Origin: Escherichia coli
GTDB lineage: Bacteria; Pseudomonadota; Gammaproteobacteria; Enterobacterales; Enterobacteriaceae
NCBI RefSeq assembly: GCF_003334785.1
Contig: NZ_QOWV01000007.1
Reading direction: 5' to 3' (one strand)
DNA length: 64,000 nucleotides
The notes below the pieces were generated by a model. The model did not search any database. It saw only the letters and a list, made by a program, of their open reading frames with translations, and was not told where the DNA came from. Position 1 is the stretch's first letter. Each line of letters starts with the position of its first letter. Shown piece after piece: positions 8,587-55,709 of this stretch. The translations under genes and the position numbers were made by a program.

Positions 8587-10311
8587 TCAGGTTCTCTCCG
8601 TTTTGCTTAACCACATTTCATCCATTCCGCCCCCGCGAATCTGCATCGGGTAGACGTGCTCGCTGCCATCGACGGTAACATCAACAAACACCAGGCGATT
8701 ATTGCGCACCTGTTCCAGCGCCTCGCTAAGTTTGCTTTCCAGCTCATGCGGATGAGAAATCTGGATCCCGACATGCCCATAGGCTTCCGCCAGACGGACG
8801 AAATCGGGTAGCGATTGCATATAAGATTGTGAATGACGGCCGGAATAGATCATGTCCTGCCACTGCTTCACCATCCCCAGATAGCGGTTATTGAGATTCA
8901 CCACCAGTACGGGCAACTCGTATTGCAACGCGGTAGACAGTTCCTGGATGTTCATCTGAATACTGCCGTCGCCAGTGACGCAAACCACGGTTTCTTCTGG
9001 CAACGCCATTTTGACGCCCAGTGCCGCAGGTAAACCAAAACCCATCGTGCCGAGGCCACCGGAATTGATCCAGCGACGCGGTTTGTCGAATGGATAATAA
9101 AGTGCAGCAAACATCTGGTGCTGCCCGACATCGGACGTCACGTAAGCGTCTCCCTTCGTCAACCGCCAAAGAGTCTCGATCACCGCCTGCGGTTTAATCT
9201 TTTCACTGTGAGTGTCATATTTCAGGCACTGACGAGCGCGCCACTGTTCAATTTGCTGCCACCAGTCGCGGATCTCATCCAGTGGTTGATGGGCGGATTC
9301 TTGCGACAAGAGTTCAAGCATTTGTTCGAGGACCTGGCGAGCATCCCCCACAATCGGGATATCCGCAGTCACGGTTTTAGAAATGGAAGTAGGATCAATA
9401 TCGATATGCAGAACAGTGGCATTTGGGCAGTACTTTGCCAGATTGTTCGTCGTTCGGTCATCAAATCGTACCCCGACGGCGAAAATCACATCCGCGTTAT
9501 GCATCGTCATATTGGCTTCGTAGGTACCGTGCATTCCCAGCATGCCCAGTGCCTGACGATGCGTTGCCGGAAACGCCCCCAGCCCCATCAATGAGCAAAC
9601 AACGGGCAGATTCAACGCCTCCACCGTTTCTTTCAACTGCTGATGGCAGCCCGCCGTGATTGCCCCACCGCCTACGTAGACAACCGGTTTTTTTGCCGCT
9701 ACCAGCGTTTGCAGAGCACGCTTAATTTGCCCTTTATGTCCGGTAGTAGTGGGATTGTAAGAACGCATACTGACCGACTCCGGCCAGACATAGGGTAATT
9801 TGTTCGCCGGATTAAGAATATCTTTCGGTAAATCAACGACTACTGGTCCTGGGCGACCACTTGCCGCCAGCCAGAAAGCCTTTTTCAGCACCTGCGGAAT
9901 GTCTTCCGTTTGCTTAACCAGAAAACTGTGTTTAACCACCGGTCGCGAAATCCCCACCATGTCGCACTCCTGAAAGGCATCGTAACCTATCAACGAGGTC
10001 GCTACCTGCCCGGAAAGGACAACTAATGGAATGGAATCCATATAAGCGGTGGCGATGCCAGTAATCGCATTGGTCGCCCCTGGACCCGACGTTACCAGCA
10101 CGACGCCGACTTCCCCGGTCGCGCGCGCCAGGCCATCGGCCATATGCACCGCCGCCTGCTCATGACGAACTAATACATGATCAATACCACCCACGGTATG
10201 CAATGCATCATAAATATCAAGGACTGCGCCTCCGGGATAACCGAATACTTGTTTAACGCCCTGATCGATAAGCGATCGGACGACCATCTCGGCTCCAGAC
10301 AACATCTCCAT
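8587..10311 (-). CDS. ilvI: Acetolactate synthase III large subunit IlvI
   Basis: Start [11 protein letters not shown] at 10311 (track ORF 8587..10401 extended upstream); 574 codons; TPP-binding region [12 protein letters not shown]. Confidence 0.95.
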
Positions 10312-10576
10312 GGCCTGCCTCACTGTTTGACGGAAAAAATGTGTAAAACACATTAACCGTCCGATCTTGCTTAAGCAATTGGCAGCCAGAGACATAAACA
10401 CGGGGTAATAAGAATAAACAGGAGGAAAGGTGAAAAGAAACGATAAAATCCTCCATTACAGAGGATTAAATTGATAATAAATCGGCTGAATCCCACAACT
10501 TACAGCAATTTCTCTATTTTTTTAATTAATCCTAAAATAGAGAGCCCACACATTCAGAATAAAATTCTACATTCAA

Positions 10577-10622
10577 TAAAAAATGCAGAATAAACCAGAC
10601 ATTCATGTCTGACCTATTCTGC
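10577..10622 (-). terminator. Intrinsic terminator after leuO
   Basis: Minus strand: long hairpin (plus gcagaataaaccagacattcatgtctgacctattctgc, about 10585-10622) followed by U-run; starts 7 nt after leuO stop. Confidence 0.7.
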
Positions 10623-10628
10623 AATCAG

Positions 10629-11573
10629 TTAGCGTTTGCAAATTGAGACTAATTGCTCTTCCATCCACTGATGGCCTTTATCGCGCCCGGCAGCTTCATG
10701 CCAGGAGAGATAACAGGTTCTGCTGTTTTGTTTTAACGGCAGCGGTAATACCTGTAATTCTAAGGATTCAGCGAACTCTTCAGCCAGCCAACGCGGCGCA
10801 ATAGCGACCAAATGCGTTTGCGACACCACGCTAAGTACGCTCATCATTGCCATGCCCTGATACGCGATACTGGCTTGCTTATCTACCGTGTCATACCAAG
10901 GTTGACTAAATGACGCGAAACGATCGAGCGAAACCGCCGCATGTTGTTCGTTATAAACATCATGTTTCAGTAACGGGCCCTTAATTGTTGGATGATTTTT
11001 GCTGGCTACCAGCACCATTTCATCTTTAAATAATGGTACGCTGGTAAATTCAGGACGATGGAAGTCTTCATAACTAATCACAAACTCCGTTTCCTGATAA
11101 CGCAGCTGATGTTCAGTGTTCTGATTTAATGAAGACTTGAACATAACATGTATATTTGGCGCAATCTGCTCAATGTGATTATAAATCTGCGAGGTCAGAA
11201 TGCTGTCTAACGGGCTGCAAACACAAAGATGAAATACACGTTCACTGCTCGCGGGTTCAAAACCTGAACCAGGCAATTCATTTTGTACTAGTTGCAATGC
11301 CTGACGAACTGAACCAAAAAGTTGAAATGCGCGAGCAGTCGGTTGAATACCACGGCCATAACGAACAAAAAGCTCGTCATTAAACATCACCTTCAGGCGT
11401 GCAACAGCGTTACTGACCGCAGGTTGCGACATTCCCAGAACATGAGCGGCACGAGTAATGTTTTGCTCCTGCATCACGGCATCGAAAACGGTTAATAAGT
11501 TGAGATCGACCATGCGTAGCTGTGGTTTGCTTAACTCCGCCGTCTCTGGATGATCTGTTTGTACCTCTGGCAT
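10629..11573 (-). CDS. leuO: LysR-family transcriptional regulator LeuO
   Basis: Start [14 protein letters not shown] at 11573 (track ORF extended upstream into AT-rich DNA); [26 protein letters not shown]; 314 codons. Confidence 0.94.
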
Positions 11574-12231
11574 ACTTAACTCCACTGTCACACTTAACTC
11601 CCTTTCCCTTATTGGAATGCAGAGAAATAATCCTGAAGAATATGATTTATCATGCATATAAAATAAGAAAAAGCAAAATGAGTAAAATTCGGAAAACATA
11701 AAGATACGGGTTCTGATAAAAACAGAATCCATTGCCGTGGAATGAGTCATTTACCACAGCATAATAATCCATAATGTTTTTGTTGCGAAAACAATCTAAT
11801 CATAACTACCGCGAATACTCAATCATCTACAAAATGGATTAAATGTGCTTATTTAATAATTAATTTATATATTTAATGCATTAATTCTTAACATTAATTG
11901 ATCAATAATATTCACCAAATCAATATCAAAAAAATCGCAAAAGATATAATTCAATACAAATCATCAGGATAGGTTTTGCAACGCGTGCATTTTGTCCCCT
12001 TTTTCCTCGTTGATTAGATGCAAAAATTTATGCTGAAATATGTCAACCGATGAAAAGCGTCGGTAGTTAAGCAGAAATTAATATCGCTTACTTTAACCAC
12101 CGCAGCACAATTAGCTAATTTTACGGATGCAGAACTCACGCTGGCGGGACGTTTTTATTGCGTCAGGGTTGACATCCGTTTTTGTATCCAGTAACTCTAA
12201 AAGCATATCGCATTCATCTGGAGCTGATTTA
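11574..12231. promoter_or_regulatory. AT-rich divergent leuO / leuLABCD control region
   Basis: 658 bp, strongly AT-rich (runs such as aataattaatttatatatttaatgcattaattcttaacattaattg); candidate leu promoter -35 TTGACA at about 12169-12174, about 58 nt upstream of leuL ATG. Confidence 0.7.
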
Positions 12232-12318
12232 ATGACTCACATCGTTCGCTTTATCGGTCTACTACTACTAAACGCATCTTCTTTGCGCGGTAGACGAGTG
12301 AGCGGCATCCAGCATTAA
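12232..12318 (+). CDS. leuL: leu operon leader peptide LeuL
   Basis: 28-codon [31 protein letters not shown] with four consecutive Leu codons, immediately followed by terminator hairpin. Confidence 0.92.
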
Positions 12319-12337
12319 GCCAGCACGCAGTCAAACA

Positions 12338-12368
12338 AAAAACCCGCGCCATTGCGCGGGTTTTTTTA
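12338..12368 (+). terminator. leu attenuator (rho-independent terminator)
   Basis: cccgcgcc-attg-cgcggg stem (about 12343-12360) followed by T7 run (12361-12367), 43 nt upstream of leuA ATG. Confidence 0.9.
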
Positions 12369-12410
12369 TGCCCGAAGCGAGGCGCTCTAAAAGAGACAAG
12401 GACCCAAACC

Positions 12411-15073
<2,663 letters not shown>

Positions 15074-52951: not shown

Positions 52952-53722
52952 TTAAATGACTTTGCGAAGATTTTCAGCAAATGCGGCGATCTGTTCTTCG
53001 CCGTCGCCTTCAATCACGATGCGCTGACGTTCGCGCTGTTTCGGCGCGGCAACCTGTTGTTCTGACCAGGCTGCCTCTGCGTTAAAACCAATATCCGCCG
53101 CCGACCATACCTGGACGGGCTTTTTCGCCGCGCCGAGAATGGCTTTCATCGAAGGAATTTGTGGGGAATTGATATCAGTGGAAACAGCAACAACCGCAGG
53201 CAGCGGAATGCTTAAGGTTTCGGTTTCATCTTCCAGTTCGCGCTCAACGGTGAGGGTATCTGCAGTCAGGGAGATAATTTTGCTGACGCCGTTAACTGCC
53301 GGAATATTGAGGATTTCGCCTACCAGCAAACCAACCTGCTGGGCATAAAGGTCGGAAGAACCATCGCCACAGAGGATCAAATCAAAGCCTGCTTTCTGGG
53401 CGGCTGCAGCCAGTGCGCTCGCCGTTTGTTGCGGCAGTGCCTGCTCGAACTGGTCATCAATTACCACAATCAGTTCATCCGGGCCGCGCGATAACACATC
53501 TTTACGCCCTTTGGCGTTGGTCAGGGCTTTACCGCCCACACTTAAGGCTGTCACCTGCGCCTCTGCTGCCTGTTGCTTTAGCTGGCAAGCCGCTTCAATA
53601 GCGTTGAGATCGTATTGGCTTATTTTGGCATCGGCTTTGCTGAAGTCTAATGAACCATCAGCATTATTGACCGCAATATCCTGTTCATCAGGCACGCACT
53701 TATAGCAAGTAATAATCTTCAT
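52952..53722 (-). CDS. fixA: Electron transfer flavoprotein beta subunit FixA
   Basis: Start [15 protein letters not shown] at 53722 (track ORF extended upstream); 256 codons. Confidence 0.94.
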
Positions 53723-53814
53723 TGCATCTCCAGAAATCATGAAGGAAACGTCGTTCATATCGGTGGTGTTAATTACAGATATCACGCCCTTTAATTTGGA
53801 AATAAAACTTTAAT

Positions 53815-53944
53815 CACCAATATTGAAAATGTCACACGCAGATAAATCCAACTTTCAATATTGTTAAGTTCCTCACCAATATTGAAAACACGGCGTAGCA
53901 AAAAGAAATTTTCAATATTGTTTTATGGATCACCAATATTGAAA
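53815..53944. promoter_or_regulatory. Five copies of a CAATATTG-centred motif in the fix/cai divergent promoter region (likely CaiF operator half-sites)
   Basis: caccaatattgaaa at about 53815, 53874, 53931 and tttcaatattg at about 53853, 53910; two inverted pairs at about 21-bp centre spacing plus one lone copy. Confidence 0.7.
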
Positions 53945-54191
53945 GTCAGATGTTATTTTTTTACTCAAAATAGAGCATAACAAACTGATTATTAATCAAA
54001 ATTAACGAAAAAACGCCCTCTATTCACCCGAAACAAAAATGTGATACCAATCACAGAATACAGCTTATTGAATACCCATTATGAGTTAGCCATTAACGCG
54101 TCCACGAGGTTAATAATAATTATATTAAATGTTAACAAAAATAAAACAAACGGGAACGCAAAATAAATATTCGTTTTCACAGTGGAATTAA

Positions 54192-55709
<1,518 letters not shown>

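Follow-up and report, generated by a model that had tools for sequence, protein, structure and literature searches.

The AT-rich leuO-leuLABCD divergent spacer of Escherichia coli: a conserved region consistent with H-NS silencing and promoter-relay control

The 658-bp interval that separates the divergent genes leuO and leuL, in the window analyzed here (the whole stretch of 64,000 nucleotides of E. coli DNA), is in all likelihood the native leuO-leuLABCD divergent control region of this species, silenced by H-NS, and opened by anti-silencers and DNA supercoiling. The interval is an ancestral, AT-rich, and curved spacer, conserved in both its length and its composition, with the leu promoter at its right end and the leader/attenuator lying beyond it. 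The region represents a textbook case in which H-NS silencing is combined with DNA supercoiling and with the anti-silencing action of LeuO, BglJ-RcsB, and SlyA, and the product that it controls, LeuO, is a master regulator of CRISPR-Cas, drug efflux, and virulence genes.

This spacer is already known, and its preliminary description was correct, which means that the confirmation of this description adds no new biology. The additions provided here are small, and consist of a map of coordinates, the finding that length and AT content are conserved throughout the family, and one conserved motif that is phased with the leu promoter. These comparative results could guide mutagenesis.

The locus and its gene neighborhood

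The limits of the 658-bp spacer in the preliminary description are exact, given that the CAT corresponding to the minus-strand ATG of leuO occupies positions 11571-11573, and the ATG of leuL, positions 12232-12234. The identities proposed for LeuO, the leuL leader peptide, leuA, and ilvI are also right. The window is oriented in the direction opposite to that of the K-12 map of the E. coli chromosome, and contains the following features at this locus:

ilvI, minus strand, ending at about 10401
10629-11573, minus strand, leuO, encoding a LysR-type regulator of 314 aa, annotated start at 11573
11574-12231, no strand assigned, leuO-leuL divergent intergenic spacer, 658 bp, 67.0% AT
12218-12367, plus strand, Leu leader/attenuator RNA, Rfam RF00512 (Leu_leader), full-length match, 145.8 bits, E = 1.7e-33
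12232-12318, plus strand, leuL leader peptide gene, 28 aa, with four Leu codons in a row
leuA, plus strand, from 12411, downstream of leuL

The genes follow the order ilvIH, leuO, leuLABCD, with leuO being divergent from leu and co-directional with ilvIH, and this order is kept in 79 species. The score of the Leu_leader match (145.8 bits) compares with an Rfam gathering score of 50.

In K-12 MG1655, the counterpart of the spacer is 659 bp long (NC_000913.3 83,709-84,367) and has no annotated feature inside it, and nothing is annotated between leuO and leuL in the RefSeq annotation of a strain that is 99.8% identical. The spacer and its K-12 counterpart are identical at 656 of the 658 positions, the two differences being a SNP at 11943 and, at 11927, a run of seven A here, as against eight in K-12. 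Neither of these changes implies a difference in function. The polymorphism in the length of the A-run directly adjoins the LeuO-type palindrome found at 11908-11926. The spacer is present in nearly all complete E. coli genomes (5400 of 5426). On the other side of leuO, the leuO-ilvI spacer of K-12 contains the annotated 14-aa gene yabR (b4726), which corresponds to approximately 10430-10474 of the window (plus strand), and this position is occupied by a 45-bp hypothetical CDS in other strains, and by a pseudogene labelled “too short” in ST131.

Base composition, curvature, and reading frames

The strongly AT-rich character attributed to the spacer is borne out by its AT content of 67.0%, in comparison with a window average of 47.1%. 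Among all the 658-bp stretches of the 64 kb, the spacer is the AT maximum, and only windows shifted by a few bases have an equal score. The runner-up peak, at 53675-54332, has 66.7% AT and an ORF-free core at 53786-54194, and may represent a further divergent spacer of the H-NS type. Within the leuO-leuL spacer, the AT content is highest in a central core:

11840-11960, no strand assigned, AT-rich core, 83.5% AT, 18 TpA steps

The preliminary description had also supposed that this DNA is curved, and a wedge model predicts a mean curvature of 8.98 degrees per turn in the spacer, against a window mean of 6.21. This value is reached by only 0.5% of the 658-bp windows and by 0.3% of the dinucleotide-preserving shuffles of the spacer and, given how rarely the shuffles reach it, the predicted bending is not a mere by-product of composition. 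A/T tracts of four or more bases occur 20 times in the spacer (window mean 6.1; top 0.3%), and TpA steps, 59 times (window mean 26.8; top 0.2%). The AT skew plot, which had been suggested as a further check, revealed nothing distinctive in the spacer.

In the sense of annotation, the spacer is ORF-free, as had been claimed, with no annotated gene inside it, and the mechanical list of reading frames places six ORFs of 22-41 aa within its limits. By this same list, only one or two gaps of the window that are similarly poor in ORFs compare with the spacer in length, which ranks it in the top two or three. The leuO frame is open upstream as far as an ATG at 11750, which produces a mechanical ORF of 373 aa, while the leuL frame is open upstream to 12127, and both of these extensions lie in the AT-rich DNA that precedes the annotated starts.

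Conservation across the Enterobacteriaceae

A scan for LeuO, with one genome per species, recovered 80 loci from about 25 enterobacterial genera, 78 of which were usable. In these 78 loci, the length of the spacer ranges from 549 to 753 bp, with a median of 632 bp and a coefficient of variation (CV) of only 3.9%, in comparison with a CV of 13.3% for the leuO-ilvI spacer of the same loci. The AT content of the spacer has a median of 65.6% (range 56-69%), as against 43-51% in the flanks, and this excess of approximately 18-20 points is kept in every genus. The sequence itself, by contrast, is only about 49% conserved across the family. Given that length and AT content are conserved family-wide, while the sequence is not, the spacer represents ancestral core-genome DNA, rather than foreign material, and appears to be held by selection on its length and composition. 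Within this poorly conserved background, the conserved blocks are located at both promoter ends of the spacer, with an additional block in the AT core:

11574-11605, conserved block, leuO ribosome-binding region
11684-11700, conserved block, TTTTCCGAA on the leuO strand
11888-11908, conserved block, TTAACA…TATCA, inside the AT core
12166-12175, conserved block, GGGTTGACAT, in nearly all of the 79 spacers
12185-12213, conserved block, TATCCAGTA…CTAAAAGCATAT

A raised divergence of the spacer within the species was considered as well, and was rejected, given that the spacer identity of 95.0% in the ST131 allele is close to the values of 96.3-97.5% found in the flanking core genes.

One of the loci recovered by the scan, L078 (CACSKA010000010.1), belongs to an assembly titled “Chryseobacterium sp. 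18061”. The leuO-leuL locus in question is of the usual enterobacterial type, and is almost the same as that of L079 (“Citrobacter sp. 18056”), and the assembly is probably either mislabelled or contaminated.

The leu promoter and an upstream 16-mer

A candidate -35 element of the leu promoter, TTGACA, had been placed at about 12169-12174, and this hexamer is present there on the plus strand, and is conserved in almost every one of the 79 enterobacterial spacers, as would fit a -35. The distance from TTGACA to the ATG of leuL is fixed at 62-64 bp in most of the 79 spacers. The assignment of TTGACA as the putative -35 hexamer of leuLABCD is well supported by this conservation and spacing. The region in which the -10 would be expected follows at a short distance:

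12185-12213, plus strand, -10/start region of the leu promoter, TATCCAGTAACTCTAAAAGCATAT, conservation 66-82%, candidate -10 position

The sequence TAACTC is located 17 bp after the TTGACA. The known leu promoter was left uncalled by a consensus promoter scan, which is attributable to its weak -10. The leuLABCD unit comprises a sigma-70 -35 upstream of a leader with four Leu codons and of the full-length RF00512.

Farther upstream, the spacer contains a near-invariant element:

12103-12118, no strand assigned, near-invariant 16-mer, CAGCACAATTAGCTAA

This 16-mer is at least 95% conserved at 12104-12111, and 100% conserved at 12115-12116, in surroundings that are only 30-45% conserved. It lies 65-67 bp from the -35 in 63 spacers, and 54-57 bp from it in a further 10, a class that is about one helical turn shorter, and helical phasing between the 16-mer and the leu -35 is observed in 75 of the 79 species.

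The 16-mer has two mismatches with the SELEX consensus of Lrp, and the spacer contains four of the 11 Lrp-like sites with at most two mismatches to this consensus in the window, although the AT richness of the spacer inflates such matches. One of the three closest matches in the window, at 10555-10569, has a single mismatch, and is located in the leuO-ilvI spacer. Lrp sites are known upstream of ilvIH, and this match is taken here to be a positive control for the consensus. In the literature, leuO is reported to be a direct target of Lrp in both SELEX and ChIP-seq, with no position being given for the site. A text search of the literature for the 16-mer returned only irrelevant matches, with no published operator among them, and the 16-mer may well be known already in literature beyond that searched.

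If the 16-mer were an operator, its most likely binder would be Lrp or another architectural protein. In this case, the 16-mer could mark the limit that separates the active leu promoter from the silenced leuO side or, alternatively, could couple the initiation of leuLABCD to the leucine status of the cell. A broader proposal would be that the tight length of the spacer (CV 3.9%) provides a topological “ruler” for H-NS bridging or the supercoil relay, instead of merely reflecting the retention of sites, and that the 16-mer is a functional, uncharacterised operator, although this combination is tentative, and rather unlikely.

leuO promoters and regulator sites

The promoter starts, footprints, and nucleation site of the E. 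coli leuO are reportedly defined in Stratmann 2012 and Chen 2001-2005. The positions of the published elements on the window (P1, P2, LeuO site I, the BglJ-RcsB box, and the nucleation zone) were inferred here, and the corresponding features are as follows:

11634-11673, minus strand, best-conserved block of the leuO side, …TATATGCATGATAAATCATAT… on the leuO strand
11689-11696, minus strand, candidate BglJ-RcsB box, TTTTCCGA, which fits the core wwTTCykA
11761-11789, minus strand, promoter-like TTCGCA-N17-TATTAT directed toward leuO, the only sigma-70-like match in the scan
11865-11884, no strand assigned, two overlapping predicted SlyA sites, TTAAATATATAA and TTAATGCATTAA, from PMC5797941
11908-11926, no strand assigned, LeuO-type 7-N5-7 palindrome, ATATTCAccaaaTCAATAT, that is, ATATTCA-N5-TCAATAT

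The leuO gene has at least two promoters, and the distal one, P1, reaches its full activity only in hns stpA mutants (PMC5025477, PMC3950696, PMC6698644). The proximal P2 is activated by BglJ-RcsB approximately 57 bp upstream of its start (PMC3950696), an activation that is inhibited by LeuO, which, in addition, weakly activates its own gene (PMC5025477, PMC3950696, PMC6698644).

The core motif of BglJ-RcsB is wwTTCykA (PMC3950696), and the match to it on the leuO strand, TTTTCCGA, persists in other genera in the form TTCCGA or TTCCTA. This sequence may represent the BglJ-RcsB box, although the core motif is short and contains little information. The addition of 57 bp to this candidate box would place the start of P2 near 11630-11645. 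The block at 11634-11673, with 73-81% identity to the bases of the window across the non-Escherichia genera, in comparison with 49% for the spacer overall, is the probable region of the proximal P2 and its start, with P2 being placed near 11630-11675.

The consensus promoter scan recovered a single weak site in the spacer, on the minus strand, which is fewer than in the shuffles, and the scan cannot place P1 or P2. This site, at 11761-11789, is not conserved outside Escherichia, and is a candidate for the distal promoter of leuO, possibly the published P1.

The palindrome ATATTCAccaaaTCAATAT, of the 7-N5-7 type of Fragel et al. 2019, matches the perfect ATATTCA-N5-TGAATAT of the K-12 cas3-casA spacer (ATATTCAtactgTGAATAT), taken as the core of Pcas site IIa, at 15 of 19 positions overall, and at 13 of the 14 positions of the half-sites. 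An almost identical 7-N5-7 palindrome is found in LeuO site I at leuO (PMC6698644), so the palindrome at 11908-11926 is very probably the core of this site. In the case of SlyA, binding has been observed in an EMSA fragment that corresponds to positions 11574-11917 of the window (PMC5797941).

Natural IS1 insertions at the locus

Insertions of IS1 are found at this locus in two E. coli strains. In the natural isolate tcmA_3 (L003 1548-2315), a 768-bp IS1 is flanked by a 9-bp target duplication, TTGGAATGC, with the target being equivalent to positions 11612-11620 of the window. The site lies 39-47 bp upstream of the leuO ATG, and is probably inside the 5' untranslated region of leuO, in which case the insertion would separate the gene from its native promoters. 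In FDAARGOS_943 (L005 2233-3000), by contrast with this duplicated target, an IS1 without target duplication replaces approximately 10407-12070 of the window. This strain has lost leuO, yabR, and 497 bp of the spacer, and thus represents a natural deletion of leuO, in which the leu promoter and the 16-mer are intact.

H-NS silencing and the promoter relay

The high-affinity H-NS motif, TCGATAAATT (10 bp), is reportedly that of Lang et al. 2007, and is not obligatory for the binding of H-NS. In the spacer, this motif has two matches, each with two mismatches, at 11862 and 11896, which does not constitute an enrichment. Matches with at most one mismatch are found in 15 of the 79 spacers, in comparison with 9.1 +/- 3.1 in the shuffles, an excess that is not significant. 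The spacer had been described as a typical nucleation zone of H-NS, and this claim is supported by the AT richness, the curvature, and the literature, with the caveat of a poor match to the high-affinity motif. Given this poor match, nucleation in E. coli rests on the AT-rich, TpA-rich, and curved character of the DNA, together with the published experiments. The candidate nucleation zone is the AT core (11840-11960), which may be the positional counterpart of the AT4 silencer (AT7+AT8) of Salmonella.

The silencing of leuO by H-NS through the spacer, which had been proposed at the outset, is published for E. coli, where it involves StpA as well (PMC5025477, PMC3950696), and leuO is silent in the laboratory due to repression by H-NS and StpA (PMC5025477, PMC3950696, PMC6698644). 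The comparison with H-NS ChIP data that the preliminary description had called for is also favorable, given that leuO is associated with H-NS in all three of the genome-wide E. coli data sets (Grainger, Kahramanoglou, and Oshima) compiled in a secondary table (PMC5797941 Table 2). In Salmonella, leuO has been used as a known bound locus in H-NS ChIP-seq (PMC10981669).

The control of leuO by a promoter relay had been anticipated too, and a relay from ilvIH to leuO to leuABCD, by transcription-coupled supercoiling, has been published, with the same gene order being found here. This relay, and the blocking by LeuO of the spread of H-NS, were described for Salmonella, and later also for E. coli (PMC4770239). 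In the Salmonella literature, transcription upstream relieves the silencing of leuO more than 10-fold through supercoiling. The relay signal for the activation of leuO originates on the side of ilvIH, and the spacer is a platform for the silencer and the anti-silencers.

In the published mechanism of this region, H-NS, together with StpA, binds to the AT-rich DNA, and a nucleoprotein filament extends from there over P1 and P2, which leaves leuO silent in the laboratory. This silencing is relieved by the negative supercoiling that arises from neighboring transcription, in the relay from ilvIH to leuO and the leu promoter, or by site-specific anti-silencers acting inside the spacer, which include LeuO (with its dual autoregulation), BglJ-RcsB at P2, and SlyA. 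LeuO also forms a barrier against the spreading of the filament, and Lrp targets leuO directly as well.

Alternative explanations

In many cases, the AT-rich DNA to which H-NS binds is foreign, and IS1 does insert at this locus in some strains, so the stretch might be horizontally acquired DNA or the remnant of a mobile element, bound by H-NS for that reason only. A spacer of the same length and the same AT content nevertheless occupies this position in 78 species, from about 25 genera, the window is without IS1, and there was no sign of repeats, transposase remnants, or tRNA. Within the species, the spacer (95.0% identity) has also diverged to nearly the same extent as the core genes on either side of it (96.3-97.5%). 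A foreign origin is largely refuted by this conservation, and is extremely improbable. An equally slim chance may be attributed to a hidden gene, missed by the annotation, for a small protein or a small RNA, which would explain the length of the spacer. The six inner ORFs (22-41 aa) might be cited in its favor, as might the recently annotated 14-aa yabR of the adjacent leuO-ilvI spacer, but each of these ORFs is retained intact in only 0-3 of the 75 genomes outside Escherichia, and the DNA beneath them makes up the least conserved parts of the spacer (18-35% identity). The Rfam search of 10300-12700 (E <= 1) recovered only the Leu leader and noise, with no RNA family in the spacer, and the matches within 11574-12217 were limited to miRNAs at the level of noise.

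It is also highly unlikely that the spacer is passive, with its AT richness resulting from relaxed selection and mutational bias, and its function being limited to the promoters at the two ends. Conservation between genera is absent from about half of the sequence, and the H-NS motif is not enriched, as might be expected of a passive spacer, but the length is far tighter than that of the leuO-ilvI spacer (CV 3.9% vs. 13.3%), and the AT excess of approximately 18-20 points is present in every genus. Passive DNA would account poorly for the internal conserved blocks at 11888-11908 and 12103-12118, or for a curvature above that of composition-matched shuffles, and the experimental literature describes silencing and the binding of several regulators inside the spacer. 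A native control region, silenced by H-NS, is the interpretation that is preferred here.

Comparison with known systems

The closest known system is the leuL-leuO region of K-12 MG1655, with its leuLp, P1/P2, LeuO sites, BglJ-RcsB box, and SlyA sites, which is the same locus, with the same flanking gene order. The relay of Salmonella Typhimurium has the same gene order too, and the same logic, in which the H-NS filament is opposed by the LeuO barrier and supercoiling. In the two subspecies of S. enterica sampled, the spacers are 655 and 645 bp long, with 66-67% AT. The 72-bp AT4 silencer of Salmonella is composed of AT8, for H-NS nucleation and repression, and AT7, for LeuO binding and derepression, and functional equivalents of AT4 with low sequence similarity have been reported in E. 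coli (PMC6463858). The AT core is poorly conserved between the two, with an identity of approximately 50%, and the LeuO palindrome found at 11908-11926 in E. coli is not conserved in Salmonella, where the core contains an H-NS motif with a single mismatch (AATTTATCAA) at the position at which E. coli has one with two mismatches. The control by BglJ-RcsB has been described only for E. coli.

The leader on the other side of the spacer belongs to a distinct type of control. A full-length member of Leu_leader (RF00512) adjoins the spacer, overlapping it only at 12218-12231, and controls leuLABCD by attenuation, independently of H-NS.

The bgl, yjjQ-bglJ, and Pcas loci likewise have AT-rich control regions, on which the silencing by H-NS/StpA is countered by LeuO and/or BglJ-RcsB, and Pcas shares the LeuO 7-N5-7 palindrome with the leuO spacer. 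These loci, however, are accessory or cryptic genes, whereas the leuO spacer is core-genome DNA located beside a housekeeping biosynthetic operon. The leuO spacer also differs from them in bringing together silenced and active promoters in a single spacer, given that the leu operon's own promoter is active.
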